This document shows positions 4,330 to 31,421 of a stretch of DNA of 64,000 bases, piece by piece; within the stretch, counting starts at the first letter, position 1; each line of letters starts with the position of its first letter. The notes beneath the pieces were generated by a model. It was given only the letters and a program-made list of their open reading frames with translations. It did no database searches and was not told where the DNA came from. The stretch covers positions 4,128,001-4,192,000 of the forward strand of contig OZ245817.1 of NCBI GenBank assembly GCA_965228475.1, in the 5' to 3' direction. This stretch comes from Myxococcota bacterium (lineage in GTDB: Bacteria > Myxococcota_A > UBA9160 > JAFDDA01). The position numbers and the translations under genes are program-made.

Positions 4330-4381
4330 GCTCCGGAGAGATTCGGAGCCAGGAGGACGCGCGAGTACCGACGCGAGCGAA

Positions 4382-4400
4382 CATGAAGGCAGCATGAAGA
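4382..4400 (-). promoter_or_regulatory. Candidate wHTH-regulator box (CTTCA repeated at 11-bp spacing)
   Basis: Minus strand TCTTCATGCTGCCTTCATG; 17/19 identical to 7566-7584 (+). Confidence 0.5.
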
Positions 4401-4487
4401 TCCAGGAGGAGGCGCTCAGCCGGCTTCAGGGCGCGCGAGGCGCCCGGTCGAAAGCACCGAGCTGATATCATTTCCCCTGTTGGGCCG

Positions 4488-7400
4488 ATGATGAGCGACT
4501 CCTTCGTCCACGTCCGATTCGGGGGCTTCGAGCTCGACGAGGCCGCCTTCGAGCTTCGCCAGGCGGACGGGGTCGTTCCGATCGAACCCCAGCCGCTCAC
4601 GCTGCTCTTGATGCTCGTGCGCCATCGGGACCGGGTGATGCGCCGCGAGGAGCTGACCCAGGCGCTCTGGCCGGACACGGCCGTGGGCTCGACGTCCCTT
4701 CCCCAGGCCATCCGCAAGGTACGGGACGCCCTCGGCGAATCCGGCGGCGAACGGGGCGCGATCCAGACCCACCGGGGCCTGGGCTTCCGCTTCGTCGCGG
4801 AAGTCGAGGAAGAGCCCGAGGCCCCGCTCCGCGCGCAGCCGAGGCGACGAAGGGGGGAACCCGGGCTCTATGGCCGCGAGGCCGACTGTGAGGCCGTGCT
4901 CGAAGCGCTCGACGGCGCCATCGCCGGACGCGGCAGCGCGACGTTCGTCACCGGCGCAGCGGGCATCGGCAAGACGCGGCTCGCGGCCTTCGCCGCGGAG
5001 GCGGCCCGCCACTCGGACACCGAGACCCATCGTGCCGGTGCCCTCGAGGAACGCGGCGCTCCGCCCTTCTGGCTCTGGGTCCAGATCCTCCGCTCCTACG
5101 CGGACACCCTGTCCGAAGGAGAACTGGCCGACGCTCCCGGGTCCGCGGCCCTCGACTTGGCGCGGCTCGTCCCGGACCTGAGCCCCGACGCGGCACCGGA
5201 GTCGACCGGACCCGCCGACTCGGACGAAGCCCGTTTCCGGCTCTTCGATGCCCTGGTCCGGTTCCTCGTCTGGCGGTCGCGCGAGCGGCCCCAGGTCCTC
5301 GTCCTCGAAGACCTCCACTGGGCCGACCCGGCCTCGCTGGCCGCGTTGGGCCACCTCGCGGGGGAGCTCTCGGAGCATGCCATCGCCATCGTCGCGACGT
5401 TCCGCGACGACGAACTCGGTCCCGGGCACGCGATCCTCGACATCGAGGCCGAATGCGCCCGTCACGACGCCCTGCGCCGGATCTCTCTCGGGGGCCTCGC
5501 ACCGGGCGACGTCACACGGCTCGTAACCGACCTGGCGGGCTTCACGCCGTCGGACTCGCTGACCCAGACCATCGTGCAGCGGACCGGAGGCAACCCCTTC
5601 TTCATCAAGCAGATCGTCAGCCTCGACGTCGAAGCCGCACGGACCTCGGACGATCCGGAGCGGCAGCTCGACGTGACCCTCGCAACCATGCCGCGCGAGG
5701 TCCGGCGCGTGGTCGGCCGGCGCCTCGGCCGTCTCTCGGAGGATGCGCGCACGGTGCTGGCTGCGGGCGCGGTCCTCGGGCGAAGCTTCGACGTCGCGAC
5801 GGTCCTGCGGATGGTTCCGCTGGCGCGAGAGGCACTCCTCCAGGCCCTCCAGGAAGCGGGAGACTCCCGGGCGATCCAGCCGGTGGAAGGGACGGAGCAC
5901 CGCTATGCGTTCCTGCACGACCTGCTCCGCGAGGTCGTCTACGACGAACTCGACGAAACCGCGCGGATGCGACTGCACCGGGCGGCTGCCGAGGCGCTGG
6001 AAGACATCCACCCCGAGGACAGGACGCCGGTCGTTCCGGCACTGGCCCACCACTACGGCTGCGCGGCCCCGCTGCTCGACGGAGCCGAGGCGGTCGACTA
6101 CGCCAAGTGGGCCGGCTCCCTGGCGCAGAGTTCCCTCGCCTACGAAGAGGCGTTCCAGTTCTACGACCGCGCGCTCCACGCGATGGACCTCACCCCCGAA
6201 CCGAGCATCGGCCTTCGGGCGGAGCTGATGGTGCTCCGCGGCTTCGCCCTCCAATCCTGCGGCCGGCACGAAGAGGGGCGCCAGGCGCTGCGCGAAGCGC
6301 TGCACGTCTCCCGCGTCGCCGGCTCCGGAACGCTGATGGTGGCCTCGGCCGTCGGACTCGCCGAGTTCGGGATCGGACTCCCCGACGCAGAGACGCTCGA
6401 CGCGCTCGAGCAGGCGCGGGCCGCCCTCGCCGAGCCCGAGGGCATGCTGCACGTCTGGGTCTACGGGCTGCTCGCGGCGAACCTCGCCAACGATCGGGAA
6501 CGGTTGCCTGAAGCGGACTCGCTCTCGAAGCGGGCCGAGACGGTCGCCAACGAGATCGATGATCCGGGCGCGCTCAGCCTGGCGCTCTCGAGCCAGGCCG
6601 CAGTCCAGAGGCTGCTCCCCTCCGGGCACCCGAAGGATCGAGACGCCATTGCCGCCCGCTCCGCGGCGTGCGCTGCCGATGCGCGCGACCCGACGGCCGA
6701 ACTCCTGGCCCGCCTGCAGCGCTTCGGAGCGCTGCTCGAACGGGGAGACATCTCCGAGGTCGATGCGGAGACCGCACGGATCGACGAACTCCTGCAGCGA
6801 TTGCGGTCTCCCTACTGGGGATACGTCCGCCCGTCCCTCCGCGCCATGCGTGAGCTGCTCCTCGGCCACTTCGAGGAGTCCGAGCGCCTCGCCCTCGAGG
6901 CCTACCAGGGAACGGAACACCCGCGACTGAATCTGGCCGCCGCCCTGGCCGGGATGATCGCGAGCATCCGCTACCAGCAGGGCCGCATGGGCGAGCTCGT
7001 TCCCGTCATGGGCCCGCTCGTCGCGCAGAACCCGAAGCTGCCGGCCCTCCGGGCCGGAGCCGTCCTTGCCTTGAAGGAGGCCGGACGGCTCGAAGAGGCG
7101 CGCGAGGAGATTCGTCACATCGCGGCCGACGGCTTCGGTGCGATCGTCGGGAGCGAAAGCTGGCTCTGCGCTCTCGCGATGCTCGCGGAGGTCGTCGCCG
7201 AGCTCGGGGAGCGAGAAGCTTGCGAAGACCTCCTCGCGATCCTCGAGCCCCGGGCGGACCAGTGCATCATCATCGCCAACGGCCACTACAGCCACGGCCC
7301 CGTTTCCTTGCAACTCGGCAAGCTCGCGACGACGCTCGCCGAATGGGATGCCGCCGAATCCCACCTCGAAGACGCGCTCGAGCGAAGCGACCGGCTTCGA

Positions 7401-7553
7401 TCCCCGGTTTGGCGGGCTCAGACGCTCGCCTCCCTCGCCCGCCTCCATCGCACCAGCGGAGACCGGGAGCACGCTCGGGCCCGCGCTGCCGAAGCCACGG
7501 CGATCGCCACGGAGCTGGGCATGACCGGACTGACGCGATCCCTCCGGGCGTAG
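4488..7553 (+). CDS. Large transcriptional regulator 1: OmpR/PhoB-type wHTH + AAA/STAND NTPase + TPR-like C-terminus
   Basis: RFGGFELD...IQTHRGLGFRF wHTH; Walker A GAAGIGKT; Walker B LVLEDLHWAD; GGNPFF motif; helical repeat tail. Confidence 0.9.
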   Translation: MMSDSFVHVRFGGFELDEAAFELRQADGVVPIEPQPLTLLLMLVRHRDRVMRREELTQALWPDTAVGSTSLPQAIRKVRDALGESGGERGAIQTHRGLGFRFVAEVEEEPEAPLRAQPRRRRGEPGLYGREADCEAVLEALDGAIAGRGSATFVTGAAGIGKTRLAAFAAEAARHSDTETHRAGALEERGAPPFWLWVQILRSYADTLSEGELADAPGSAALDLARLVPDLSPDAAPESTGPADSDEARFRLFDALVRFLVWRSRERPQVLVLEDLHWADPASLAALGHLAGELSEHAIAIVATFRDDELGPGHAILDIEAECARHDALRRISLGGLAPGDVTRLVTDLAGFTPSDSLTQTIVQRTGGNPFFIKQIVSLDVEAARTSDDPERQLDVTLATMPREVRRVVGRRLGRLSEDARTVLAAGAVLGRSFDVATVLRMVPLAREALLQALQEAGDSRAIQPVEGTEHRYAFLHDLLREVVYDELDETARMRLHRAAAEALEDIHPEDRTPVVPALAHHYGCAAPLLDGAEAVDYAKWAGSLAQSSLAYEEAFQFYDRALHAMDLTPEPSIGLRAELMVLRGFALQSCGRHEEGRQALREALHVSRVAGSGTLMVASAVGLAEFGIGLPDAETLDALEQARAALAEPEGMLHVWVYGLLAANLANDRERLPEADSLSKRAETVANEIDDPGALSLALSSQAAVQRLLPSGHPKDRDAIAARSAACAADARDPTAELLARLQRFGALLERGDISEVDAETARIDELLQRLRSPYWGYVRPSLRAMRELLLGHFEESERLALEAYQGTEHPRLNLAAALAGMIASIRYQQGRMGELVPVMGPLVAQNPKLPALRAGAVLALKEAGRLEEAREEIRHIAADGFGAIVGSESWLCALAMLAEVVAELGEREACEDLLAILEPRADQCIIIANGHYSHGPVSLQLGKLATTLAEWDAAESHLEDALERSDRLRSPVWRAQTLASLARLHRTSGDREHARARAAEATAIATELGMTGLTRSLRA

Positions 7554-7565
7554 CCCCGTTCATCG

Positions 7566-7584
7566 TCTTCAAACTGCCTTCATG
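7566..7584 (+). promoter_or_regulatory. Candidate wHTH-regulator box
   Basis: TCTTCAAACTGCCTTCATG, CTTCA at 11-bp spacing, upstream of the small ORF at 7630. Confidence 0.5.
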
Positions 7585-7629
7585 AAGCCATCACGCCACG
7601 CGCGAGCTCCGTCCGCGAGACTCCGAGCC

Positions 7630-7818
7630 ATGGCGAAGGAAACCCCGAAGGCATCGACGACCGACGAGACGTCCGAGGCGAATCGCCCCGCCCCCCAGGA
7701 CGAGAACCGCTCGAGAGAGCGGAAGACGCCCGCGGCGCCGCCCAGCGGGGACGATTCGCAGGATTCCGCCTGGCTTTCGAACGCGGTCCTCCGCGCTCTT
7801 CGATCGCGAATCCCGTAG
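7630..7818 (+). CDS. Small charged hypothetical protein (62 aa)
   Basis: MAKETPKAS...DSAWLSNAVLRALRSRIP; same cassette position and similar C-terminal helix as ORF 24400; RBS weak. Confidence 0.45.
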   Translation: MAKETPKASTTDETSEANRPAPQDENRSRERKTPAAPPSGDDSQDSAWLSNAVLRALRSRIP

Positions 7819-7856
7819 CCACGCACGCGGGAACACGCGGCCGCTCGATACCGCGA

Positions 7857-7875
7857 TGTTCAAAGTCCCTTCAAG
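7857..7875 (+). promoter_or_regulatory. Candidate wHTH-regulator box upstream of PEP-CTERM gene
   Basis: TGTTCAAAGTCCCTTCAAG; 15/19 identical to 7566-7584. Confidence 0.5.
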
Positions 7876-8041
7876 GTCGACCCACACAGTTTCGCGTTAC
7901 AACGAAACCGTCGCGCAAGAAACGCGCGGCACTGGGAATGGGGAAGGTTCGGAGTTCGTTCCTTCACCCGAACCCCGCAAGCGGAAGAGGTTGCGGGGCA
8001 AACGAGCGGTCGCATCGACCGAGTACCTGGAAGGATCTCTC

Positions 8042-8722
8042 ATGAGCCGATTCATCAAGCTGTCCGCGTTCGTCGCCTTCATGGCCCTGGCGAGCCCGGC
8101 CCACGCAACGTTCCTGAACATCGACCTCACGCCGACTGGCTTCTACCACACGTTCGATACGGCGGGCGACTTGCTCTCGAACACGAACGAGCAGTCGACG
8201 GGCAACGCCCTCTGGGCGGGCAGCGACGGATTCTTCGCGGAGAACGGCGTCTGGTACGTGGTCGACGGAAGCGAGACCTGGCACTCGTTCGCCTCGGCGA
8301 CGGACATGGTCCTGGCCCAGAACGAGATCGCCAGCGGCAGCTCGGTCTGGAACTCCGAGGACGGCTACTTCGCCGCGGACAACGTGTACTACCAGATCAG
8401 CAACGACAACACGTGGCGCTCCTACGGCTCGGCCGCGGACCTGTTCTCCAACTCGAACATGATCGCGACCGGCACGTCGGCCTGGGCCTTCAGCGACGGC
8501 TTCTTCGCGGTCGACGGCGCCTACTACAACGTCGACGGCGGCGGGAACTGGCACCAGTACGCCACGGCGGCGGACCTCCTCTCGAACATCAACGAAGTCG
8601 CCACCGGAACGTCGAGCTGGGGCTCCGCGGACGGTTTCGCTTCGGACGTGCCCGAGCCGGGCACGCTGCTCCTCCTCGGTGCAGGGCTCTTCGGCCTCGC
8701 ACTCACCGGACGCCGGAGCTAA
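8042..8722 (+). CDS. PEP-CTERM protein with four ~45-aa internal repeats
   Basis: Signal peptide ending AHA; repeats W-H-S-F-x-S-A-x-D-L...SDGFFA; C-terminal VPEPGTLLLLGAGLFGLALTGRRS. Confidence 0.93.
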   Translation: MSRFIKLSAFVAFMALASPAHATFLNIDLTPTGFYHTFDTAGDLLSNTNEQSTGNALWAGSDGFFAENGVWYVVDGSETWHSFASATDMVLAQNEIASGSSVWNSEDGYFAADNVYYQISNDNTWRSYGSAADLFSNSNMIATGTSAWAFSDGFFAVDGAYYNVDGGGNWHQYATAADLLSNINEVATGTSSWGSADGFASDVPEPGTLLLLGAGLFGLALTGRRS

Positions 8723-8767
8723 CCGCTCACGCCCGACCTCTCGCGGGCGCATCCGCGAGAGAACTGC

Positions 8768-8800
8768 CCGCCCCGTGAGCTCCGCTCACGGGGCGGCTTC
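8768..8800 (+). terminator. Hairpin after PEP-CTERM gene (terminator or stabiliser)
   Basis: CCGCCCCGTGAGC-TCC-GCTCACGGGGCGG, perfect 13-bp stem, weak U-tract. Confidence 0.6.
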
Positions 8801-8822
8801 GTTCTCAATCAAGGAGACCCTC

Positions 8823-10244
8823 ATGTTCCGAGCACCCATCCACTCCGCCGCGCTCTTGATCCTGGCCGGGAGCCTGTGTGGCGCCGGCTGCAAGCCCGCT
8901 GCCGACGTCAACAAGGACGGCGTGGTCGACCAGCTCGACGTCGACGCGGTCGTCGCCTGCCTGGGGCTCACACCCCAAGCGCACCCGGAGTGCGCTCCCG
9001 CCAACGTCATCGCCGACGGACTGGTCGACCTCGCCGACCGCAACTTCGTCTACTCCCGAAAGCACGACCTCGAGTGCAACGGGGCAGCGCATCTCTGCGA
9101 TCGGCGCTTCGACGCCGTGGCCTACCCGATGACGCACAACGCCTACAGCACCCAGGCCGACGGCTACATCGCACCCAACCAATACCTCTCGATGGCACAG
9201 CAGCTCCAGGACGGCATCCGGGCCATGGAGCTCGACATCTATTCCTACCAAGGGCAGACCGTGATGTGTCACGGGACCGGCGGCGCCTGCCTGGTCGGCG
9301 GGTCCCGGAGCCTGGTCGACGGCCTCGTCGACATCCGGAACTTCCTCGATGCGAATCTCGGCGAGATCGTGGCCCTGCACTTCGAGGCCTTCGTCAGCCA
9401 AGAGGACGCGGCCGCCGCGTTCGCCCAGGCGGGCCTGCTCGGCTACACGCACGTCCCGAACATCGGGGAACCCTGGCCCACTCTGCGCAAGATGATCGAA
9501 CGCGGAGAACGGCTCGTCGTCCTGACCACGGACCCCACGGGAGGCTACCCCTGGTACCGCTTCAACTGGGACTTCACTTTCACGACGCCCTATGAAGCCT
9601 TCGCCATCGCCAACTTCAGTTGCGACTTTCTCTCGGGCGCCCCCTGGGCGACACTCTTCCAGCTCCCGCACTTCCTGACCCAGTTCGGGCCGGCGCCCCT
9701 CGCGGCCCCGACCGTCAACGCCAACCCGTTCTTCCTCGGCCGCGTGCTCGAGTGCGAGGGCGCCCGCAACCATTTTCCGAACTTCGTGAGCGTCGATTTC
9801 TACGACGTCGGCGACCTGTTCGAAGTCGTGGCTCATCTGAACGGCGAGTGGACGATCTTCGAATCGGAGAGCGACTTCTCTCACGGGATCGGAAGGGCCG
9901 ACGAGGACGGCTGGTCGGCATCCACGACCGAAGACGCCGAGGGACACCTGAGCTTCGGCCCGTACACGACGGAGCTATCCCCCGGCCTGCACGTCGCCTA
10001 CTACCGGCTGATGATCGACGACAACGACGCCGACGACCTCGCCGTGGTCGACATCGACGTCTACGATGCGACCGCGGGGCAGGTTCTCGCCCACAAGCCG
10101 GTCACCCGCCGCCAGTTCGATGCCACCTACGAGTACCAGGACTTCGTCCTGTCCTTCGACGTCCCGGCTGGCCACGAGATCGAGTTCCGCACCTACTGGC
10201 ACGACGTCGCCTACATCCGCCAGGACCACGTGGCCGTCCGCTGA
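8823..10244 (+). CDS. Lipoprotein: dockerin/EF-hand-like motif + PI-PLC (PLC-X)-like domain + C-terminal beta-sandwich
   Basis: AAGGAG RBS; lipobox GAGC; DVNKDGVVDQLD; CNG...LCDRRFD...PMTHNAY, QLQDGIRAMELD, CHG and PNFVSVDFY typical of PLC-X-like proteins. Confidence 0.85.
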   Translation: MFRAPIHSAALLILAGSLCGAGCKPAADVNKDGVVDQLDVDAVVACLGLTPQAHPECAPANVIADGLVDLADRNFVYSRKHDLECNGAAHLCDRRFDAVAYPMTHNAYSTQADGYIAPNQYLSMAQQLQDGIRAMELDIYSYQGQTVMCHGTGGACLVGGSRSLVDGLVDIRNFLDANLGEIVALHFEAFVSQEDAAAAFAQAGLLGYTHVPNIGEPWPTLRKMIERGERLVVLTTDPTGGYPWYRFNWDFTFTTPYEAFAIANFSCDFLSGAPWATLFQLPHFLTQFGPAPLAAPTVNANPFFLGRVLECEGARNHFPNFVSVDFYDVGDLFEVVAHLNGEWTIFESESDFSHGIGRADEDGWSASTTEDAEGHLSFGPYTTELSPGLHVAYYRLMIDDNDADDLAVVDIDVYDATAGQVLAHKPVTRRQFDATYEYQDFVLSFDVPAGHEIEFRTYWHDVAYIRQDHVAVR

Positions 10245-10250
10245 ACGGGC

Positions 10251-10721
10251 TCAGGCCGCCTCGGCCATCCGCCCCTCGCCTGCCGCCAGCGCGGCGGGCG
10301 AGGGGATCAGGGTCTCGCGCCGGATCTCGAGCACGCCGAGCTTCTCGAGCAGCAGACAGAAGCCATAGCCGATGTCGACCTCCCACTTGGTGAAGGAGAA
10401 CTTCGCCGAGGTCGCGTAGCGGTGGTGGTTGTTCTGGAAGCCCTCGCCGAAGATCAACCAGGCGGCGAAGTGGTTGTTGCGCGAGTTGTCGTTCGTCTCG
10501 AAGTTCCGGCCGCCCACGGCGTGGCCGAGGGTGTTGACGATCCAGCCCTCGATCGGGTGGCTCATGATCCCGGAGTAGTAGGCCGCGGCGAGGAGCCACA
10601 TGCCGGTCGGGATGGCGATGGCCAGGGCGATCGCGGCGTGGGCGACGTAGGGAAGCATCCAGAGGCGGTTCCGGTTCAGCCAGTGGATCGGGAAATCGAG
10701 GTCCTCGACCCCGCGCGTGTA
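10251..10721 (-). pseudogene. 3' fragment of fatty-acid desaturase (duplicate of 30627-31097)
   Basis: 471 bp at about 96% identity to the 3' part of the intact gene; lacks the first two His boxes; homology ends exactly at the 31-bp repeat. Confidence 0.9.
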
Positions 10722-10752
10722 GGACGTCATGGGATGGTCAAGAAGTCATCAG
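10722..10752. repeat. 31-bp direct repeat, copy 2
   Basis: Identical to 4299-4329; overlaps the stop of the 10738-11442 gene and supplies an ATG in frame with the desaturase fragment. Confidence 0.95.
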
Positions 10753-11442
10753 CTTCCGGGCAGGCTGGAGTCGAAGTGCGGCAAGACCGCCGACGGCCAT
10801 CAGGAGGAAGGCCCCCGGTTCCGGAAGCGCCGTCACGGCGATGGTTCCGGCGACGGAACCCTGGACGGGAGCCTGCGCGGCCACCAGTGCGCCCACGTCC
10901 TGGGCCGCCGCCGAGAGAGCGACGCTCAGGTCGAGGTCGAGCCCGAAGGCCAGATCGTCGAGAGACGGGTACGCGCCGGGAGACGAGAGCTGAACGTTGC
11001 TCACCTCCGGAGAGACCATTGGAGCCAACACCCCCGACCCCCCGACGGCGAGGAACTGGCCGGGGTCGAAGTTCGCGGTCAGGACGAGTTGATCCGCGTG
11101 ATCCCGGATGCTGAGCGAGTAGGTGAGTGTGTCGTCGATCTCGAAGAAGTACACCGAACCGAACTGGCTGAAGAGCCCGGTCAGAACGACGTCGTCGAGT
11201 CCGACGGAGAAACCGAGCGGGAGGGGATCGGGCACGTCTGCGTTGTCACGTGCGGCGGTGATCTCGAGGTCGTCGCCGAAGTCGATCACCAGGCCCTGAA
11301 CCAGGAAGCTCCCGTTGCTCGAGGCGAAATCCACCTGCGCCAGAGCGAAGGCGTTCCCGGACCCGAGCGAAGCCAGCCCGAGGGCGAGCCCGAGGAGCAC
11401 CCTGCGGGCGAGTCCGGGTTTGATTCGATCGGCAGCATTCAT
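10738..11442 (-). CDS. PEP-CTERM protein
   Basis: GAGGAGG RBS; signal peptide ending AFA; C-terminal LPEPGAFLLMAVGGLAALRL. Confidence 0.85.
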   Translation of the reverse strand: MNAADRIKPGLARRVLLGLALGLASLGSGNAFALAQVDFASSNGSFLVQGLVIDFGDDLEITAARDNADVPDPLPLGFSVGLDDVVLTGLFSQFGSVYFFEIDDTLTYSLSIRDHADQLVLTANFDPGQFLAVGGSGVLAPMVSPEVSNVQLSSPGAYPSLDDLAFGLDLDLSVALSAAAQDVGALVAAQAPVQGSVAGTIAVTALPEPGAFLLMAVGGLAALRLQPARKLMTS

Positions 11443-11561
11443 CGGGTGTCCTCCTCGCTGAGAAGCCCCGGGGCGAGGAGGCCGCGAATCGCCGGAGGCG
11501 CCGCGCTCCACCCTCCCCAGGGTTCGAACCCGGTTTACCGCGTGGAGGGCATCCGGAATAC

Positions 11562-11593
11562 GACCGGAATGAAATCGTCAGGATCTCCTCATG
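11562..11593 (-). promoter_or_regulatory. Diverged homologue of the 31-bp element (TGA motif at 11-bp period)
   Basis: Minus strand CATGAGGAGATCCTGACGATTTCATTCCGGTC, about 20/32 identical to the 4299 element and at a similar distance (~120 bp) from its ATG. Confidence 0.5.
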
Positions 11594-16434: not shown

Positions 16435-16446
16435 CCGGCGACGCCG

Positions 16447-17091: not shown

Positions 17092-17164
17092 GCGATCCCT
17101 CCCCTCCTGGACCGATCCAGTGGTCCAGCGATGCGCATTGTTCGCCATGCGACGAGATTTTGGT

Positions 17165-17193: not shown

Positions 17194-17215
17194 AGAGGCG
17201 CCGACGAGGGAGGAA

Positions 17216-17803: not shown

Positions 17804-17950
17804 GCCCGCCTCGCTCGCATCTATTTGGAATCCAGGGGTTTCTCGTCCTGAAGCGTATCGTATTAATGGGTATGATTCCGGTTGTAATGATATCAGAGAG
17901 TATGATACCGGTGAATACTGCATGAAGACTGGCGAGCGAGGAGCAGACCC

Positions 17951-24000: not shown

Positions 24001-24198
24001 GAACACGCGCTCGACGTCGCGAACCGGCTGCGCTCGCCCGTCTGGCGCGCCCATGCGCTCGGTGCCCGGGCCTCCCTGGCCGTCGCCCACGGCGAACGGG
24101 CGGAGGCCCGGCGGCTGGGCCGCGAGGCGCTCGGCCTGGCCGACCCGATGGGCCTGGCCCGGGTCCTCCGCCGCCTCCGGGCGCTCGAGCTGACCTAG
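21043..24198 (+). CDS. Large wHTH-STAND-TPR regulator 3 (start may be GTG 21088)
   Basis: N-terminal half nearly identical to regulator 2; AGGAG RBS before 21088. Confidence 0.9.
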   Translation: MKARPTRGFGQENDRVSTGPPTEEGPSQLPALRFAGFELDEATYRLTRGGHPIRLEPKPLALLFHLVRHRDRVVTKEELRQLLWPDAIVSGDSLFHVVMKAREALGERGRKDGTIQTIRGRGFRFAAEVELLIDDTVPGSGASERSPLATRSLIGRGAELQRLREIHAATGQGSGRVALVEGPAGIGKSRLVREFVEGSSPALREIHHATSPESGGAPAYWLWVQILRSLLPVARESSFEDAPSIEALLAELTGAGGPALADMADADEAEFRLLDGLATSLRDHAEKQPIVLVLEDLQWVDSGSAKALAFLSDAIATVPILIVGTCRDVELGPDHPLERARVEWMRRDLLEAVPLAGLDPDDVTTLVEEVTGYEPDDGFIESLWTRTRGNPFFVRQILALALARTDPTEELGARLRSEVGTIPQEVRRVIRDRLARLDGPTQMVLSRAAAFGAEFDLAALARCVDLDRASLLRALERASAEQIITPRATLAKPYAFSHGLLREVAYAELDASERAQVHRRIAEALEELYADRIESIVPALARHYGDAAPLLESDEAVRYSKWAGDLARDSCAYQDAAEAFARAIRALDLLPDATAERRAELLICSGFALQSAGRNEEGRSQHRAAMAHARSAGNPKLFAAAVLGLAEVGVGGNDPELLELLESLEEALAGLEAVDEDEGPLRIWLLSAVAVRAAPLGRLARAKAASHEAAERARASRDPSWLAWALASVSEVRRFDPETLPEQRLALLDEASERADDARNTNFAIVASVQRYGVLMELARRQEAERECERMAELVERSRSSYWGYLVPSLRSGLLSLDGDLPGSERLAHEAFDRSDGPHLQLASARAGSLAMIRYQQGRLSELLPAVSALRAGSSLTGVLDSAEIAALIETGDDATARERLDEVAADDFQACLGKEAWILSLCTISEACEDLHDEARARTLYALLEPRADHAVIVDNGQHVHGPVAFFLGILAKTFGDLPLAEERLEHALDVANRLRSPVWRAHALGARASLAVAHGERAEARRLGREALGLADPMGLARVLRRLRALELT

Positions 24199-24399
24199 GA
24201 ACGCCTCCGCCGGACGGATGGCTCGCACCTTCTGACTGAACGCCGGGGCCACGGGAACACGTCGCGGTGTCGTCGGCGGTTCCACACGACGGAAAACCCT
24301 ATTGAAGTCGACCGGTTTCGCCTTCGGTCAAGCACAAGGAAAGGTTCAGCGTCGTTCACCCGGGACCGGGGTTAGAAGTGCTTCCGGGAAGGGCGAAAG

Positions 24400-24774
24400 G
24401 TGTCGCAGAACCAGTCGCAAGATCCGGCGCGCGAGCAGCGCACGAAGCCGAAGCGTGACGATGCGCAGCGCGAGGAGCGCCAGCGGCCGGAAGGCGAATC
24501 CGCCTCCGAGCCCAAGAAGAAGCGCGGATCGCCGGGCATCGACGACGCGGAGATCGAGCGCGCGGCCCGCCGCGCCTGGCGCCGCCTGTTCCCCCTGATC
24601 GCGCTGCTCGCCGGCCCGATGGCCGGCTCAGCCGAGGCGCTCGCCGACGGCGCCGCGCTCGCGATCCGTGCAGTGGCTCCGAACCACGGCCCCATCGCAT
24701 CCACCGTCCTGCCTCCGGGCTTCGACGGAACGGAAAGTGACCTCGCAGCGGACGGTCCGCTCGGGGACGACTAG
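24400..24774 (+). CDS. Small hypothetical protein: charged N-terminus, amphipathic helix, hydrophobic segment
   Basis: ...GIDDAEIERAARRAWRRLFPLIALLAGPMAGSAEALA...; cassette position equivalent to ORF 7630. Confidence 0.55.
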   Translation: MSQNQSQDPAREQRTKPKRDDAQREERQRPEGESASEPKKKRGSPGIDDAEIERAARRAWRRLFPLIALLAGPMAGSAEALADGAALAIRAVAPNHGPIASTVLPPGFDGTESDLAADGPLGDD

Positions 24775-24861: not shown

Positions 24862-25587
24862 ATGATTCGAAACATCACGAACTACGTGGCCATGGTGGCC
24901 CTGTTGCTGTTCGCGGCCGGGAATGCCTCGGCAACCGTCATCGCGACCTACGACGGTGGTGACGTCCGCTCGTTCACGGACTCGGCCAGCTTCGTTACCG
25001 GCCCCGCTGGAGGGACGGGGGTCTCTCCGCTGGGCACTCACAGCTTCGCGGAGGTGACCTTCGCCGACAACGCGACCGGCACCATCTACGCGGTCTACGA
25101 GGGCGGCGACGTGCTGAGCTTCGCCTCCATCGCGGACTACGTGGCGGGCCCGGGTACGGGCACGTCGGTTGCGGGCCCGGGAACGCACCTGTTCCTGGAC
25201 CGCGGCGCCTACCAGGACGGCGACGGCACGATCTACGCGACCTACATCGGTGGTGAGGTGCTTTCCTACGCTTCGGTTGCGGACTTCCTGACGGGTCCGG
25301 GCACCGGAACCACGGTTGCGGCGGCCGGCACGCACGCGTTCGGCGAGACGCTGTACCGCGACGACACGACCGGCGAGATCTTCGCCGCGTACGAAGGCGG
25401 CGACGTCTACAGCTTCGCCAGCAGCGCGGACTACATCTCCGGCATCGGAGCCGGGACGCTCGTCGCTCCGGCCGCGACGCACCTGCTGCTCGATCGCGGC
25501 ACGTTCTTCGTGCCGGAGCCGGGCTCGGTGCTCCTGCTCGGCAGCGGGCTGCTGGGTCTCGCGCTGGTGGGCCGCCGCCGCAGCTAG
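24862..25587 (+). CDS. PEP-CTERM protein with four ~49-aa internal repeats
   Basis: Signal peptide ending ASA; repeats TIYAxYEGGDVxSFASxADY...GTH; C-terminal VPEPGSVLLLGSGLLGLALVGRRRS. Confidence 0.93.
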   Translation: MIRNITNYVAMVALLLFAAGNASATVIATYDGGDVRSFTDSASFVTGPAGGTGVSPLGTHSFAEVTFADNATGTIYAVYEGGDVLSFASIADYVAGPGTGTSVAGPGTHLFLDRGAYQDGDGTIYATYIGGEVLSYASVADFLTGPGTGTTVAAAGTHAFGETLYRDDTTGEIFAAYEGGDVYSFASSADYISGIGAGTLVAPAATHLLLDRGTFFVPEPGSVLLLGSGLLGLALVGRRRS

Positions 25588-25620: not shown

Positions 25621-25661
25621 AGGGCCCACCTCGGTCTCCACCGGGGTGGGCCCTTTCTCTT
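25621..25661 (+). terminator. Intrinsic terminator after PEP-CTERM gene
   Basis: AGGGCCCACC...GGTGGGCCCT stem followed by TTCTCTT. Confidence 0.7.
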
Positions 25662-25694: not shown

Positions 25695-28004
25695 ATGGAT
25701 CGTCATCGCCTCCTCTGGGTCAGTCTGGCAGCCCTGGTTTTCTCGGGGACGAGCTGCAAGCCGGCTCCGCTCACGGTCGCCATCACCTCTCCGCAGACGG
25801 GGACCTTCACTCAGGCAGGCTCGATCCTCGTCGCGGGAACCGTCGGGGGCGGCACCGCCGCGGAACTCGCGCTGACGGTCAACGGTGTCGCCGTCCCGGT
25901 CGCTGCGGACAAGACATGGAACGCGTCCGTCCCGCTCGACCCGAGCCGCGTGTTTCAACCGATCCTTGCCGAGGTCCACCACACGGTCTCCGGCAAGACG
26001 AAGCGCGATCGCGTGACCGTCGTCCTGGGCGATTCCGTCGTCGACGGCGGCTTCTCCACAGAGAGCGTGGCGTTGCGGCTCACCGACCGCGGTCTCGACG
26101 CCATGGAGCCCCGGATGGGCGCCCTGGTCGAGTTCGATCTCGCCACGTTGATTCCGGTCGGAACCTTCTTGACGAGCTTCCCGTTCGGCCTTCTCAACTA
26201 TGACGTCTACGTCGCGAGCCCGGCGCCGAGCCTCCAATACTTCCACGTCCATCTCGACGCCCTGAATCAGGCCGCCGAGGTCGAGATCGACATCGACGAC
26301 CTCCTGATCTGGCTCTTCGTGGATGCGCCGGTGATCGATTGCGATGCCTATCTGCTCTCGAGCGACGTCCGGATCTTCGCGGACTTCGCACTCGAGCCGA
26401 ACGCTTCGGATCCCCGGCTCGTCGATGCCACGCAGGTGGGCAGCCTCTCGATCCAGACCTCCGGATTCTGGATCGACTTCACCTCCGGGGATTGCGTCGG
26501 CGCGGACGGCGACTACACGGGCGACGTGGTTCCCGCCCTCATCGCCTTCCTGAGCCAGACGGACGCGGAGGGCAACACCGTGATCGCCGCTGCGATCGAA
26601 GACGCACTCAACGACCTGGCCTTGGCCGAGACGATCGGCACCTCCCTCAGCGTCTCCCTCGACGCGCCGATGTCCGAGATCTCCGAGGACGACGACGGCG
26701 TCACCCTCGGCGCGGACACCGCCTTCACGTCCGTTGCGGGAACCGACCCCGGGGAATGCACGCCGCCGGCCGAGGCGCCGGACCTCTTGGCTTCCTACCA
26801 CGTGGCTGAGCCGTTCCCGACGTTCGCGACCACCACGCCCACGGGCGGTCTCGACTACGACATCGGGATCGGGCTCTCGAGCTCGGCGTTCAATCAACTC
26901 CTGATGGCCCAGGTCGAATGTGGGCTGCTTGCGAGCGACGTGACCGAGATCGATCTCGGTGGCGGCCCCGTCGCGGTGACCGCCGGCGTTCTGGCGCTCT
27001 TCGATCCGGCTTTCGGCACCTACCCGCCGACGACGCCCTTCCGCATCGAACTGCGACCCGCTCTGGCCCCGGTCTTCACCGGGGCACCCGGCCCCTCCGG
27101 CGAGATCCGAGAGATGCGCATCGGTCATCTGCTCGTCCGCGTCGTCGAAGAAGCAACCGGTGCGCTCGCGCTCGCCGGAGCCGTCGATGCCCGCTTCGGC
27201 GTCGACCTGGCGATCGCGGAGACCGAGATCGCCTTCACACCGGCAGTGCCGCTCGCGGGCGACCTTGCGGTGACGGTGCTCGAGAACCCCGTGGGTGCAA
27301 ACGTGGCAACGCTCGAAGCCGCTCTCCCTCTGGTGCTGGCTCCGGTCTTCCCGACGCTGGCCGCCGGCCTCGAAGGCGTTTCGCTGCCCACGTTCCTCGG
27401 ATTTTCACTCGACGGCGTGGAGGTCTCGGACCAGGGCCAGTTCCTGGGCGTCTTCGCGGACTTCGTTTCCGGCGACCGCTACTGGCGCCGCTACGGAAAC
27501 CAGCTCCGAGCCTTCGGGAGTGCCGTGGATGCGGCGGCGAATACCGGGCTCCAGGAGTGGTACGCGGTGGACGGCAGCCATCAGGACTCCATGCTGTTCG
27601 ATGGCGCGCTCTACTGGCGGCGCTACAGCGGCACACTCGAGGGCTACGTGTCGCCTTCGGACTTGGCGACCCGTAGCAATCCGGTCGCGGTCCATCCGGC
27701 AGATGGCAACGACTCCGACGCGATGATGTACGACGGCACCCACTATTGGCGGCGCTACGCCGACCAACTCGAAGGCTATTCCACGGCCGCCGACATGGCG
27801 GCGCGAACGAACCTCCAGATCGTCCACACCGCGACGGGCTTCCCCGACGAATCGCTCCTGCACGACGGGATCGACTATTGGCGGCGTGTCGGGCCGTGGC
27901 TCGAGGCCTACCCGACGGCCGCGGACCTCGCCGCTGGGACCAACCTGCAGATCAGCCTCCCGGCCGTTGGTGCGGCCGAGGATGCCATGATGTTCGGGCC
28001 CTAG
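25695..28004 (+). CDS. Lipoprotein: Ig-like domain + BPI/LBP(TULIP)-like region + four 44-aa C-terminal repeats
   Basis: GGAGG RBS; lipobox GTSC; VALRLTDRGL and IGLSSSAFNQLL resemble BPI/LBP barrel starts; four G-x-x-YWRR repeats. Confidence 0.7.
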   Translation: MDRHRLLWVSLAALVFSGTSCKPAPLTVAITSPQTGTFTQAGSILVAGTVGGGTAAELALTVNGVAVPVAADKTWNASVPLDPSRVFQPILAEVHHTVSGKTKRDRVTVVLGDSVVDGGFSTESVALRLTDRGLDAMEPRMGALVEFDLATLIPVGTFLTSFPFGLLNYDVYVASPAPSLQYFHVHLDALNQAAEVEIDIDDLLIWLFVDAPVIDCDAYLLSSDVRIFADFALEPNASDPRLVDATQVGSLSIQTSGFWIDFTSGDCVGADGDYTGDVVPALIAFLSQTDAEGNTVIAAAIEDALNDLALAETIGTSLSVSLDAPMSEISEDDDGVTLGADTAFTSVAGTDPGECTPPAEAPDLLASYHVAEPFPTFATTTPTGGLDYDIGIGLSSSAFNQLLMAQVECGLLASDVTEIDLGGGPVAVTAGVLALFDPAFGTYPPTTPFRIELRPALAPVFTGAPGPSGEIREMRIGHLLVRVVEEATGALALAGAVDARFGVDLAIAETEIAFTPAVPLAGDLAVTVLENPVGANVATLEAALPLVLAPVFPTLAAGLEGVSLPTFLGFSLDGVEVSDQGQFLGVFADFVSGDRYWRRYGNQLRAFGSAVDAAANTGLQEWYAVDGSHQDSMLFDGALYWRRYSGTLEGYVSPSDLATRSNPVAVHPADGNDSDAMMYDGTHYWRRYADQLEGYSTAADMAARTNLQIVHTATGFPDESLLHDGIDYWRRVGPWLEAYPTAADLAAGTNLQISLPAVGAAEDAMMFGP

Positions 28005-28024: not shown

Positions 28025-30607
28025 ATGTTTCACCCGCTCTCGCGGACGCTCGTGGTTCTCGCCACCGTCCTGCTCTCCCCGCTTGCCTCCGCTCAGCTCA
28101 CGCTTCCCGCGGCGGTCTCCCTCGACCAGGGCCAGGCCTTCTACCCGGCCGCCAACGTGATCGGAACGTCCGGCATGTTCATCGGTGGCGACGGACTGAC
28201 GGTCGACGACCGCTTCGTGAGCGAAGCCAGCGCGCTGAACGCCTTCGTGACGGATGCTTTCCTGCCGAGCTACTTCGACGACGGCGGTGTCGCTCCCGTC
28301 TTGACGTTCACGTTCGCAGCCCCGACCGACCTCGACGGCATGGTGGTCTGGAACTACCCGAACACCGCGGCCGTGGGCAATGCGGCGCGCGAAGGCACCG
28401 TCGAGCTCGACACGGGTTCCGGATTCGGTCCACCGATTCCCGTCACACTCAAGACCGGCTCATCCGCCAGCGCTTTTCTCGCCCCGACTCGCGTTTCGCT
28501 CGGCTTGCATGCAGGCGTGGTGGCGGCCCGGCTGACGATCGCCGCGAACTACCGCGGCTTCGGCGGCGCCCCAGGCGGCGACCGCGTCGGCCTGGGCACG
28601 GTCGCCTTCGGCCTCCTTCCCCCGGCGGCTCCGTCTCCGAACCTCGTTCCGGACACGAACTCGATGGACTTCTTTCCGGACGACCTGGAGGCCTACCCGG
28701 GAAACCCGGTGCTGGAGGGCGGGGACGTGACCGACTCTCCCTCGGAAGGCATCGCCGATCCGTTCCTCTTCAAGGACGGCAACGACTGGTACCTCTTCGC
28801 CGAGATCATTCAGGAGGGAACGGGGCACGGCGACCTCTCGGTGGCCACGAGTGAAGACGGCCTCCATTGGCAGTACGAGCAGATCGTTCTCGACGAACCG
28901 TTCCACCTCTCCTACCCGCAGGTCTTCCAGGTCGACGGCACCTACTACATGATCCCGGAGACCCATCAGGACCAGTCGATCCGCCTCTACCGCGCGACGA
29001 ACTTCCCGTACGACTGGACCCTCGAGTCCGTGCTCCTCACGGGCCGCCCGTTCGTCGATGCGTCGATCCTCCACTACGAAGGCCGCTGGTGGATCTTCGC
29101 GGCGGAGCCGCCCAACACGCACACCTTCCTCTACTCCTCGGACTCGCTCACGAGCGGCTGGGTGGAGCACCCGCAGAGCCCCGTCATCGCGAACGACGCC
29201 AACATCGCCCGACCCGGCGGCCGCTCGTTTTCCTTTGCCGGCGGAACCCGTGCGATCCGAACGGCGCAGGACGACTTCCCCTTCTACGGAGAGGCAGTCC
29301 GGCTCTTCGAGATCATGGAGCTCTCCCCGACGCACTACGCGGAGGTCGAGCTCCCGACGAGCCCGATCCTCACGCCCGAAGGCTCGGGCTGGGCCGGCGG
29401 GGGCTACCACCACTTCGACCCCTGGCCGAACGGCGACCACTGGCTGGCGGTCATCGATGGCCAGCTACCGGGCCAGGGCGGTTGGTCGATCGGGATGACG
29501 ATTGCCCGCTCCCCGGACGCGCCGGATGGCGAGATCGACACGCCGGCTTCTTCACTGTCGATCCAGGCGGGCGAGACCGTGCTCTTCTCCGGAACGGCGA
29601 CGGATCCGCAGGGCGACGCCATCGACAGCCACGTCTGGCACTTCGGCGCCGGCGCCGGCATCGCCGACGCGCACCTTCCCGACCCGGGGAGCGTTCGCTT
29701 CACCGCTCCCGGCAGCTTCGAAGCCGAGTACGCCGTGTGGGACGAACACGGCCACGCGGATCCGATGCCCGCGCGACGTACCGTCCACGTCGCACACCAC
29801 TTCGCGTCGATCCTCTCGATCACTGCGACGAACTCGAACACCGACCCGGCCTTCGCACTGGGCCAGATCATCCAGGGCCAGGGCGCTGGCTTCGCGAACG
29901 ATGCCCCGCACCCGGCGCTGTCGGACCTCTCCTGGTCGACGCAGACCGTAGGCGCCGGAAACGACTACTTCGCCGTGAACCCCGCTCCGGTCGTGATGGA
30001 CTTCCTGCTCGACGACGTGCACATGGTCGACGGCATCGCCCTGTGGGCGAACTTCTTCGCGCCGGGCAACTCGCTGCGAAGCTTCGAGGCGCAGTTCTCG
30101 ACGACGGGGAGCGCCGCGGGTCTCGGCGCGCCGATCGCCTTGGCTGCAAGCGACCTCGAGTCCGCGACCATGGAAAAAGTCCCCGTGCCGCCGACCGAGG
30201 CGAACTACGTCCGCCTCACACTCACAGACAACCAAGCCGGATTCGCGCTTCCCGGCGGCGACCGCCTCGGACTGCGGGAGATCGCGTTCACGGTCGACGT
30301 CGGCCCGGCCCTCGTCGTCGCGTGTGCGAACGGCCTCGACGACGACGGGGACGGCCTGATCGACGCCGGCAACGACCCGGGCTGCCGGGACGCCGACTTC
30401 CCCTACGAAGCTCCCGCCTGCGATGACGGACTCGACAACGAAGGCGACGGGCTCGTCGACCTCGACGACGCCGAATGTGACGCTGCCTGGCGACACCGGG
30501 AGACACCGAAGGCGGCGTGCGGGCTCGGATTCGAGGCCGCCCTCCTGCTCCCGCTCTTGGGGGCGTGGCGTAGCCAAGCAACGCGAGGTCGGGCGGGCCG
30601 TCGATGA
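28025..30607 (+). CDS. Secreted multidomain protein: discoidin-like, GINT1/GH43-like beta-propeller, PKD, discoidin-like, Ca-binding repeats, CGLG-type sorting tail
   Basis: ADPFLF, LDEPFHLSYPQVF...YYMIPET; WHFG...FTAPG PKD; two GGDR-x-GL-x-x-x-AF domains; CANGLDDDGDGLID; ACGLGFEAALLLPLLGAWR. Confidence 0.8.
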   Translation: MFHPLSRTLVVLATVLLSPLASAQLTLPAAVSLDQGQAFYPAANVIGTSGMFIGGDGLTVDDRFVSEASALNAFVTDAFLPSYFDDGGVAPVLTFTFAAPTDLDGMVVWNYPNTAAVGNAAREGTVELDTGSGFGPPIPVTLKTGSSASAFLAPTRVSLGLHAGVVAARLTIAANYRGFGGAPGGDRVGLGTVAFGLLPPAAPSPNLVPDTNSMDFFPDDLEAYPGNPVLEGGDVTDSPSEGIADPFLFKDGNDWYLFAEIIQEGTGHGDLSVATSEDGLHWQYEQIVLDEPFHLSYPQVFQVDGTYYMIPETHQDQSIRLYRATNFPYDWTLESVLLTGRPFVDASILHYEGRWWIFAAEPPNTHTFLYSSDSLTSGWVEHPQSPVIANDANIARPGGRSFSFAGGTRAIRTAQDDFPFYGEAVRLFEIMELSPTHYAEVELPTSPILTPEGSGWAGGGYHHFDPWPNGDHWLAVIDGQLPGQGGWSIGMTIARSPDAPDGEIDTPASSLSIQAGETVLFSGTATDPQGDAIDSHVWHFGAGAGIADAHLPDPGSVRFTAPGSFEAEYAVWDEHGHADPMPARRTVHVAHHFASILSITATNSNTDPAFALGQIIQGQGAGFANDAPHPALSDLSWSTQTVGAGNDYFAVNPAPVVMDFLLDDVHMVDGIALWANFFAPGNSLRSFEAQFSTTGSAAGLGAPIALAASDLESATMEKVPVPPTEANYVRLTLTDNQAGFALPGGDRLGLREIAFTVDVGPALVVACANGLDDDGDGLIDAGNDPGCRDADFPYEAPACDDGLDNEGDGLVDLDDAECDAAWRHRETPKAACGLGFEAALLLPLLGAWRSQATRGRAGRR

Positions 30608-30626
30608 GACCGTCGCCCTCGCTTGC

Positions 30627-31421
30627 TCAGGCCGCCTCGGCCATCCGCCCCTCGCCTGCCGCCAGCGCGGCGGGCGAGGGGATCAGGGTCTCGCGCCGGA
30701 TCTCGAGCACGCCGAACTTCTCGAGCAGGAGGCAGAACCCGTAGCCGATGTCGACCTCCCACTGGGTGAAGGAGAACTTCGCCGAGGTCGCGTAGCGGTG
30801 GTGGTTGTTCTGGAACCCCTCGCCGAAGATCAGCCAGGCGGCGAAGTGGTTGTTGCGCGAGTTGTCGTTCGTCTCGAAGTTCCGGCCGCCCACGGCGTGG
30901 CCCAGCGTGTTGACGATCCAGCCCTCGATCGGGTGGCTCATGATCCCGACGTAGTAGGCCGCGGCGAGGAGCCACATGCCGGTCGGGATGGCGATGGCCA
31001 GGGCGATCGTGGCGTGGGCGACGTACGGCAGCATCCAGAGGCGGTTCCGGTTCAGCCAGTGGATCGGAAAGTCGAGGTCCTCGACCCCCCGCGTGTACTC
31101 GCGCTCGCCGCGCGCCAGGCCGACGAGCGTCCGCTCGTAGGACCGGAGCTGGCCGAAGAGCACGCCCATCGTCCCCTGGTAGACCGGGCTGTGAGGGTCG
31201 CGCTCGGTGTCGGAGTAGGCGTGGTGCCGGCGATGCATCGTGGCCCAGCCCTTCGGGTCGAGGCCGGTGCACCAGATGCCGCCGTGGATGGCGAGCTTCC
31301 GGGCGAAGGGGCTGAGCGTGACGGCGCGGTGGGCGAGACCGCGGTGGTAGAAGATCGTGATCATGATGGCGTTCACGAGGTAGGCGGCGAGGAAGACGCC
31401 GAGACAGGCCAGGATGTACAT
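30627..31421 (-). CDS. Fatty-acid (acyl-CoA delta-9-like) desaturase
   Basis: His boxes YHRGLAH, HRRHH and QNNHH; DPHSP; AAGGAG RBS. Confidence 0.92.
   Translation of the reverse strand: MYILACLGVFLAAYLVNAIMITIFYHRGLAHRAVTLSPFARKLAIHGGIWCTGLDPKGWATMHRRHHAYSDTERDPHSPVYQGTMGVLFGQLRSYERTLVGLARGEREYTRGVEDLDFPIHWLNRNRLWMLPYVAHATIALAIAIPTGMWLLAAAYYVGIMSHPIEGWIVNTLGHAVGGRNFETNDNSRNNHFAAWLIFGEGFQNNHHRYATSAKFSFTQWEVDIGYGFCLLLEKFGVLEIRRETLIPSPAALAAGEGRMAEAA

Follow-up and report, generated by a model that had tools for sequence, protein, structure and literature searches.

What controls a PEP-CTERM surface-protein gene that stands beside its own STAND regulator, and why should such a pairing occur twice at one locus? 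Both questions are raised by a 64,000-nucleotide window (C1:4128001-4192000) of the closed 5.0-Mb genome of a Myxococcota bacterium (GC content of about 70%, completeness of 96%). In this window, a STAND regulator, a small open reading frame (ORF), a PEP-CTERM protein built of four repeats, and a putative lipoprotein follow one another in two cassettes, A and B (Table 1). A preliminary description had named these parts and their twice-occurring order, all of which we found in place. It had missed that the desaturase runs on the opposite strand, that the copy in A is truncated, that a 31-bp repeat (R31) is present as a pair, and that a further block lies between the cassettes. We found that the STAND regulators probably activate neighboring surface-protein genes through 11-bp repeats and that A and B, judged from their sequences, are two alleles of one variable locus rather than independent modules. 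As a whole, this two-layer account of AfsR-like local activation plus allele stacking is fairly probable.

STAND regulators and the surface-protein genes beside them

Three genes in the window (STAND-A, STAND-B1, and STAND-B2) encode proteins with matches to Trans_reg_C (PF00486; 45-47 bits), AAA_16 (80-86 bits), and TPR families, the last in the putative C-terminal sensor part. The Walker A, Walker B, and GxP elements of STAND NTPases were all found, appearing in the alignment as GxxGxGK[ST], hhhEDLxW, and GNPFF with both Walker motifs intact. In STAND-A, the winged helix-turn-helix (wHTH) extends to residue 102 and AAA_16 begins at residue 127, and none of the regulators has a BTAD match (PF03704) at an E value of 0.01. 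The solved structures nearest to the wHTH are those of PhoB; the NOD part had no solved relative by sequence. Relatives of the regulator include proteins from Myxococcota and Deltaproteobacteria. The genome encodes a fourth paralogue, STAND-C (C1:4878259-4881339), and a fifth wHTH-STAND protein that is 30% identical; neither the fifth nor one at 4.22 Mb has an adjacent PEP-CTERM gene. In a FastTree phylogeny of 108 near-complete proteins (two partial ones, from L043 and L256, were assigned by similarity), the four proteins of our genome, G000, and seven from a second genus, g74, formed a single clade (support of 1.0; 11 of 108). Among 225 genomes of the class, this clade was found only in G000 and g74. 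It was not found in G001, which belongs to the same genus and is 89% complete, or in G002.

Members of this clade tend to have a PEP-CTERM gene as a neighbor. We fetched 121 STAND loci of the class (L numbers) from the top of the match lists and counted the 117 that have a wHTH part; the fragments left out (L257, L258, L180, and L182, all from g74) have no PEP-CTERM gene. Of the nine g74 loci, seven had a PEP-CTERM gene no more than 700 bp away (six upstream and one downstream; L033 and L034 have less than 400 bp of downstream flank), compared with 6 of 108 other class loci (two downstream and four divergent). In G000, three of the four clade genes have one, with B1 standing in tandem with B2, and STAND-C has its PEP-CTERM gene (PEP-C) directly upstream. 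Only 143 of the 4,066 genes of the genome (3.5%) have a PEP-CTERM gene within 700 bp, so the adjacency in the window exceeds what chance would give. Against this background, and with 11 distant PEP-CTERM genes in the 1.07 Mb of the fetched loci, enrichment outside the clade is slight. PEP-C and the L036 protein, both encoded upstream of the regulator, are 43% identical, and the L035 and L038 proteins bear another head. The tails of PEP-A, PEP-B, and PEP-C share 17, 17, and 15 of 20 residues, against a mean of 7.5 over 2,701 pairs. The pairing was seen in two genera, each from a different family, where a single type of tail carries at least four heads and gene order is not fixed.

The proposal that one-component STAND regulators are tied to PEP-CTERM genes is thus borne out beyond this genome. 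The preliminary description had also made its case depend on the gene order occurring elsewhere: the pairing does recur in g74, but the fixed order does not, with the PEP-CTERM gene upstream of the regulator in six of the seven g74 cases and at STAND-C. Several points weigh against the adjacency. It rests on two genera, g74 is represented by four related species, and its seven cases reduce to about two types of PEP-CTERM protein. A Fisher test overstates the significance because kin are not independent. Metagenomic STAND relatives (28-39% identity, mostly without a wHTH and on short contigs) had PEP-CTERM genes at 0 of 78 loci, and PEP-C had no match in a sample of 400 genomes of the phylum. 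No description of the pairing was found in the literature searched, from which subscription journals were largely absent. At C1:4882692-4883762 (L032), a CVNH lectin-domain gene lies directly upstream of PEP-C on the same strand.

A candidate operator emerged from an unguided Gibbs search of nine upstream regions, which converged on a TCA[G/A]-type repeat with an 11-bp period. The exact form TCA-n8-TCA-n8-TCA occurs four times in 5 Mb, and two of its three intergenic occurrences are at 4304 and 7569. A repeat model trained on G000 ranked four of five independent g74 regions in the top 2% of 1,422 controls. With a model trained on g74, 0.3% of these controls scored as high as the PEP-A region and 0.1% as high as R31. 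When sites were left out one at a time, the peak fell at period 11 for the site behind STAND-A and at period 12 for the one before small ORF B.

We ran a blind test on the 108 loci outside the clade, of which 83 offered sufficient flank and a called gene. In these, the motif followed 14 of 83 non-clade STAND stop codons versus 6 of 500 control stops. This enrichment was confined to period 11, with 14 sites versus 0 to 4 for the other periods among 8 to 14. Divergently upstream of the STAND gene, the motif occurred in 6 of 82 cases versus 11 of 460 controls; a cruder pass of the motif test gave 18%, 10%, and 6% of 101. Many of the blind-test sites have a TAnnnT-like box about 25-27 nucleotides (nt) past the last repeat. 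The targets outside the clade were mixed, including secreted proteins and, by reading of their sequences, Coq4-like proteins, a methyltransferase, esterases, and an ammonium transporter. The same candidate operator precedes recurring non-PEP targets (L056, L084, L233, and L270; L040 and L041; L216 and L217), among which the Coq4-like genes, esterases, and ammonium transporter are possible clues to the ligands of other STAND clades. Of 47 PEP-CTERM genes with a free upstream region, only PEP-A, which was in the training set, passed the threshold, so the 11-bp repeat is not a general PEP-CTERM promoter.

Other observations count against an operator at every cassette. The training sites were chosen by eye, and L038 failed the cross-test of the G000-trained model (0.45). 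Under the g74-trained model, 16% of controls scored as high as the region of small ORF A, 14% as high as that of small ORF B, 12% as high as that of PEP-C, and 84% as high as the 200 nt before PEP-B, so that four of the six target regions in the window cassettes or at PEP-C failed. R31 is the best array in the genome by this model (rank 1 of 461 intergenic matches), but it has no -10 at the expected distance, and it is part of an opposite-strand module that is present in the allele without A. It aligns with the array upstream of gene 10738 inside a duplicated minus-strand promoter and signal-peptide module of about 200 bp (4025-4345 and 11350-11620; 0 of 500 shuffles); the left R31 copy stands upstream of the module that belongs to the GDSL operon (ORF 4025-4183). 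We downgraded R31 as an autoregulatory promoter of STAND-A because no -10 follows it and because it belongs to this module. The two module copies precede a 52-amino-acid (aa) ORF coupled to the GDSL gene and the PEP-CTERM gene 10738, each with an inverted 11-bp array upstream. Homology between the intergenic regions of A and B was not distinguishable, with 28 of 500 shuffles scoring as high. A search of positions 1-33000 against Rfam returned four weak matches, none near the gathering threshold, and thus no riboswitch or known RNA in the leaders. The PEP-A leader contains a long inverted repeat (7930-7974) without an Rfam match, and the motif CTGGGAAG recurs in several leaders.

The failed sites are among the points in favor of an explanation without any regulatory link, in which STAND and PEP-CTERM genes ride together in variable secreted-protein islands and the repeats serve other OmpR/PhoB-type regulators. 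The genome holds at least 74 PEP-CTERM genes by a self-built profile (above 20 bits; 47 exceed the Pfam cut-off), the g74 loci lie among toxin-antitoxin and insertion-sequence-like genes, and both R31 and an array near 11589 point away from their genes. Yet the motif is enriched directly behind STAND genes of many families, at period 11 and with TAnnnT-like boxes at about +25 to +27, and the sole passing PEP-CTERM gene is PEP-A, with the caveat given above. We consider an absence of any link unlikely.

Our preferred reading is that the regulators would act as one-component, AfsR-like STAND activators that lack a BTAD and stand in place of PrsK/PrsR. The NOD and TPR parts would hold the PhoB-type wHTH inactive until a signal and ATP binding release it. 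The released wHTH would then bind direct repeats of the TCAG type spaced by one helical turn, the last repeat overlapping a poor -35 roughly 26 nt ahead of the -10, and would activate the neighboring gene. Across the class, the candidate targets are mixed, and the usual neighbor in the clade is a PEP-CTERM protein, presumably surface-located, with an exchangeable N-terminal domain. PhoB itself binds 11-bp repeats. AfsS is a small protein, and a small ORF likewise stands beside the regulator here. MalT has a C-terminal LuxR helix-turn-helix, unlike the N-terminal wHTH of our regulators.

The closest parallel is AfsR at the afsS promoter of Streptomyces coelicolor. According to the sections of PMC10936776 that we consulted, this promoter carries a pair of 11-bp direct repeats, of which the upstream member overlaps a poor -35 (TTCAGC, -38 to -33). 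The repeat there consequently lies about 26 nt before the -10, the same distance as here, and the candidate sites appear to match the afsS geometry. The same sections describe AfsR as an OmpR-type wHTH, a NOD, and TPRs in one chain, and MalT and GutR-type activators as STAND switches with a TPR-like sensor, both of which our regulators resemble. Unlike AfsR, they have AAA_16 instead of NB-ARC, belong to another phylum, and neighbor surface-protein genes instead of controlling antibiotics. Because the definition of SARPs in the consulted portion of PMC12224297 includes the BTAD, our regulators are not SARPs by that definition. By analogy, the system would work like AfsR at afsS, but it is neither a SARP, nor part of the PrsK/PrsR regulon, nor, by its lack of PADLOC matches, a known defense system.

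The classic route to PEP-CTERM control was outlined by Haft et al. (PMC1569441), who, in the portion consulted, linked PEP-CTERM and exosortase to PrsK, PrsR, PrsT, and sigma-54 and left further regulators and motifs to be found. Our loci share with that system the PEP-CTERM tail, an exosortase in trans, and large upstream regions. They differ in that the best matches to PrsK and PrsR fall below the cut-off (418 of 502.6 bits and 98 of 300 bits) and that a simple regular expression found no sigma-54-like -24/-12 site in the 300 nt before PEP-A, PEP-B, or PEP-C. Such sites precede 7 of 71 PEP-CTERM genes, compared with 16 of 1,500 controls; PEP-CTERM genes 857211 and 4198650 on C1 are examples. 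Another enhancer-binding protein may serve these genes, PrsR being below cut-off. In the excerpt of PMC10599522 at hand, a Geobacter SARP-type mutant alters expression of a PEP-CTERM gene, with direct control not shown; the excerpt of bioRxiv 10.64898/2026.07.10.737566 makes no mention of PEP-CTERM. The control of PEP-CTERM genes without a sigma-54 site, which the consulted text of PMC1569441 left open, thus receives a candidate answer for one clade, in which the regulator is named and both its operator and the promoter geometry are predicted. The candidate operator concerns regulators of a family strongly matched in 121 of 193 genomes from the order; the reach of the PEP-CTERM link is limited to two genera. 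The parts and mechanism are of known kinds; the proposed route from regulator to PEP-CTERM gene via 11-bp repeats was not described in the literature searched.

Two alleles at one variable locus

The repeated gene order had been read as modularity. A desaturase stump, the R31 pair, and an empty site instead show the doubling to be one locus seen in two alleles, and cassettes A and B are not independent occurrences of the order. From left to right, the locus comprises the GDSL operon; R31, A, and the desaturase stump; R31, a minus-strand block, and B; and the desaturase. Positions 10249-10721 duplicate 30625-31097, the 3' part of the desaturase, at 96.2% identity. The copies differ at 17 of 157 codons, 13 of them synonymously, as expected if the stump diverged as an intact gene in another strain. 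The R31 copies at 4299-4329 and 10722-10752 are exact, the right one abuts the stump, and 100 shuffles gave no match. In sequencing runs X4 and X5, which come from one study at a depth of 2 and represent a strain about 95-98% identical, 4279 is followed on one contig, after 22 intervening letters, by 10725, so that A is skipped. This strain retains gene 10738, the TPR genes, the TetR gene, and STAND-B1, without A on the contig. Two facts weigh against this evidence: the empty site is known from depth-2 contigs of that study alone, and the same runs show low depth across A too (0.5-2.6), for which other organisms or another strain may be the source. A 99% copy of small ORF B on an 8,470-bp contig, the same size as the X5 record holding the desaturase end, is a hint only.

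The region bounded by the GDSL operon and the desaturase would be a variable locus, with B as its resident allele and A as one acquired in tandem from a close relative. Homologous exchange in the left flank, combined with an illegitimate join within the desaturase of the donor, would have brought A in and produced the 31-bp duplication and the stump. The incoming DNA ends in the right flank yet lies at the left boundary, at a distance of 20 kb, a placement that homology must have guided. The genes called and scanned from 4299 to 31421 included no integrase or transposase, such as an integrative element or prophage would carry between its repeats. A was thus plausibly gained by homology-facilitated illegitimate recombination, a process proposed for array growth at type VI secretion system (T6SS) and Rhs loci of Vibrio cholerae in the consulted part of PMC5361080; a circular intermediate may be an alternative route. 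As in the V. cholerae loci described there, the new module is anchored by a conserved upstream flank and the resident module is pushed downstream. Unlike them, a 6.4-kb allele of regulator and surface protein is added here, the resident allele loses nothing, and the donor DNA terminates in a stump of the far flank. In this case of allele stacking, both ends and the empty site are mapped.

A misassembled tandem is unlikely because contigs of run X2 cover 1800-4328, 4300-10278, and 10723-18184 with zero differences and a contig of run X3 spans 9949-10751, reaching 30 letters into R31, one short of our bridging rule; X2 and X3 are possibly not independent of the source genome. Among the zero-difference contigs of X2 (1800-21700), depth was 20.5 on the left flank but reached 37-42 on cassettes A and B and 61 for the repeated part of the desaturase, a pattern that would fit amplification of the locus in the population, though contig depth does not equal copy number. 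In related genomes, the desaturase adjoins a TetR gene also in G006 and G020, and the amidase flank had no match at an E value of 1e-60 in G001 to G004.

STAND-B1 is a mosaic, with an N-terminal half that is 57-87% like B2 and a C-terminal half that is 57-74% like A. Such fast-shuffling sensor halves, together with the STAND-TPR architecture, the patchy distribution of the clade (not found in G001 or G002), and the toxin-antitoxin neighbors in g74, would suit immune or conflict sensors of the Avs/NLR kind, which would detect phage or predator and switch on a protective coat with the small ORF as relay. We regard this as very unlikely, since none of eight proteins matched in PADLOC, as antiphage Avs-type STANDs would, the effector is a DNA-binding domain rather than a nuclease or pore, and the class-wide targets include metabolic genes.

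PEP-CTERM tails and repeat heads

PEP-A and PEP-B exceed both the Pfam and TIGR02595 cut-offs and have the signal peptide, PEP motif, transmembrane helix, and basic tail of PEP-CTERM substrates. As the preliminary description had noted, the window contains no exosortase. Matches to PF09721 (two strong, one weak) lie at about 2.14 and 2.55 Mb, so processing must occur in trans, and the PEP-CTERM product would be handled by an exosortase encoded elsewhere. The secreted protein 28025 and the products of nine other C1 genes, making 10 large secreted proteins, end in Cys-Gly-Leu-Gly-x-Glu, a hydrophobic stretch, and a basic C-terminal tail (30500-30607 in the window), an arrangement suggestive of a second sorting signal.

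Four repeats occur in each of PEP-A, PEP-B, and the C-terminal 175 residues of the lipoprotein encoded behind PEP-B, and they align across the three proteins. Direct support for their kinship is modest: hhalign probabilities were 30%, 2%, and 1%, and a profile of the lipoprotein repeat placed PEP-A first among non-self ORFs with an E value of 0.045. A joint profile returned 21 representatives at an E value of 0.001 among 1.84 billion, the lipoprotein itself included; of the remaining 20, nine match PEP-CTERM in Pfam, and the repeat is assigned to no family in any of them. The repeat profile gave two weak matches in 224 other genomes of the class. Its sequence matches in the PDB were designed repeat proteins over 12-16 residues, which we judged spurious.

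A model of PEP-A built from 17 alignment rows reached a predicted local distance difference test (pLDDT) score of 90 and a predicted template modeling (pTM) score of 0.84; the single-sequence model reached a pLDDT of 47. All of the top 11 VIA-align matches to this model are hemopexin-like four-bladed propellers (Z of 10.3-12.2). The best has a Z of 12.2 and a root mean square deviation (rmsd) of 2.7 over 144 aligned residues, and the next fold has a Z of 7.9. Foldseek returned only larger propellers and missed the hemopexins, and none of the 17 members matched the Pfam hemopexin repeat at E values up to 1. PEP-A is accordingly predicted to be a hemopexin-like four-bladed propeller, and PEP-B would share the fold through its alignment to PEP-A. 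The predicted PEP-A fold resembles the PEX domains of matrix metalloproteinases (MMPs), hemopexin, and plant albumin PA2 (rmsd of about 3 Å over 132-155 residues). It differs from these in its identity of 8-14% and in its occurrence in bacterial, presumably surface-located proteins with PEP-CTERM tails. The predicted propellers are probably adhesin- or lectin-like. Word searches for PEP-A (proteins of near length) and PEP-B (longer proteins only) and an Atlas search for PEP-A found nothing, and the literature searched yielded nothing on PEP-CTERM and hemopexin together. The repeats represent a bacterial hemopexin-like family without a Pfam model.

A bolder version of our account, which is possible though doubtful, describes an undescribed kind of horizontally exchanged sense-and-display cassette in which the BTAD-less STAND, its 11-bp operator, and the PEP-CTERM gene, whose tail would stay constant while its propeller head is swapped, would travel as a unit. 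Sensor halves and heads would be reshuffled, alleles stacked and perhaps amplified, and the small amphipathic-helix protein would serve as a modulator. Each sensor would read an outside cue (prey, host, or neighbor glycan) and show a matching lectin-like propeller.

Downstream genes, small ORFs, and layout

The preliminary description saw the genes behind the PEP-CTERM genes as lipid-targeting cargo, that is, as interchangeable lipid or glycolipid effectors induced with the PEP-CTERM protein in one regulon of fixed order. Both alleles do have secreted genes right behind the PEP-CTERM gene on the same strand, a BPI-like lipoprotein gene lies two genes upstream of the clade STAND at L034 and another near L078 (2 of 119 STAND loci), and one lipoprotein bears the same kind of repeat as PEP-A and PEP-B. 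Against this, the order is not conserved, terminator-like hairpins stand between the PEP-CTERM gene and the downstream genes in both cassettes, and the desaturase is an antisense flank. BPI-like relatives occur in 59 of 225 class genomes, but 0 of the 29 loci examined (top matches, 1.5-kb flanks) have a STAND or PEP-CTERM gene, and PI-PLC-like or GINT1_N relatives occur at 0 of 119 STAND loci. We consider such a lipid regulon quite improbable. In our preferred account of local STAND activation, the downstream genes would be secreted proteins of the variable locus that are at most read through the terminator.

The labels of these genes also need care. The PI-PLC-X match of lipoprotein 8823 is below the cut-off (19.3 versus 23.1 bits). 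It has visible THN and CHG motifs, which we take to be in the catalytic-histidine role of the PI-PLC X domain, no PDB match, and a 42% paralogue at C1 585 kb. The BPI-like core had no Pfam or PDB match; it was matched by an Atlas cluster in which 57% of members carry LBP_BPI_CETP_C (score of 0.92), and the nearest clusters are mostly from Myxococcota. GINT1_N (188 bits) is a propeller domain resembling glycoside hydrolases. The apparent lipid theme derives mostly from such labels.

The small ORFs had been presented as a shared part of the cassette, but a family could not be demonstrated. Beside STAND-A, B2, and C and the STANDs of L033 and L034 are small ORFs that combine a disordered part, acidic or charged, with one amphipathic helix; four of these ORFs lie behind repeat arrays. 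The best pairwise E value was 0.18. In leave-one-out profiles, 2 of 6,167 controls scored as high as small ORF B and 45 as high as A, and L033 and L034 failed; the profile found no new member among 368 ORFs near STAND ends. Small ORF A is the best of six frames with a near-neutral codon score, and small ORF B has full-length relatives at 93% and 99%. A predicted complex of small ORF A with STAND-A residues 120-1021 scored 0.02, which is evidence neither way. A start-less frame before STAND-A (4330-4465) faintly resembles the small ORF before STAND-C (E of about 1) and is possibly a truncated small ORF.

Between the cassettes lies a 7.2-kb minus-strand block that adds two PEP-CTERM-type genes, a pair of TPR genes, and one TetR gene (Table 1).

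Table 1. Features of the variable locus, in window coordinates
Feature	Position	Strand	Remark
R31, left copy, exact 31-bp direct repeat; three TCA at 11-bp period	4299..4329	+
Cassette A, putative recently added allele	4330..10721	+	related-strain contig skips A
STAND-A: PhoB-type wHTH, AAA_16 NTPase, helical/TPR sensor	4488..7553	+
Candidate operator: TCA x3, 11-bp period; weak -10-like hexamer 7 nt before ATG	7569..7622	+
Small ORF A, 62 aa, putative coding; disordered-looking N-terminal part, amphipathic C-terminal helix	7630..7818	+
Candidate operator/promoter of PEP-A: two repeats, 11-bp period; -10 TACAAC 27 nt past the last	7860..7903	+
PEP-A: signal peptide (read from sequence), four 45-aa repeats, PEP-CTERM tail	8042..8722	+
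Terminator-like hairpin, 13 bp	8768..8796	+
Putative lipoprotein, PI-PLC-X-like domain; lipobox read from sequence	8823..10244	+
Desaturase copy, 5'-truncated, 473 bp	10249..10721	-	96.2% identical to whole gene
R31, right copy; includes stop codon of gene 10738	10722..10752	+
PEP-CTERM-type gene, resident allele	10738..11442	-	below Pfam cut-off
Two TPR-repeat genes	11594..16434	-	PrsT model match below cut-off
PEP-CTERM-type gene, low GC at third codon positions (0.76)	16447..17148	-
TetR-family regulator, divergent from STAND-B1	17216..17851	-
STAND-B1	17951..21046	+	mosaic
STAND-B2	21043..24198	+
Candidate operator/promoter of small ORF B and PEP-B; TTCAGC, -10-like TAGAAG 27 nt on; weak	24335..24378	+
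Small ORF B, 124 aa, GTG start	24400..24774	+
PEP-B: four 49-aa repeats aligning with the PEP-A repeat, PEP-CTERM tail	24862..25587	+
Intrinsic terminator-like hairpin with T tail	25621..25654	+
Putative lipoprotein: Ig-like domain, BPI/TULIP-like core (lead only), four C-terminal repeats (27477-28001)	25695..28004	+
Secreted protein: GINT1_N propeller, PKD, acidic disulfide repeats, Cys-Gly-Leu-Gly C-terminal tail	28025..30607	+
Intact fatty acid desaturase, right flank of variable locus	30627..31421	-

To the right of the locus, reading of the translations points to a small antitoxin/Doc-like pair at 32162-32781 and to topoisomerase VI subunit-like genes at 33479-36450.

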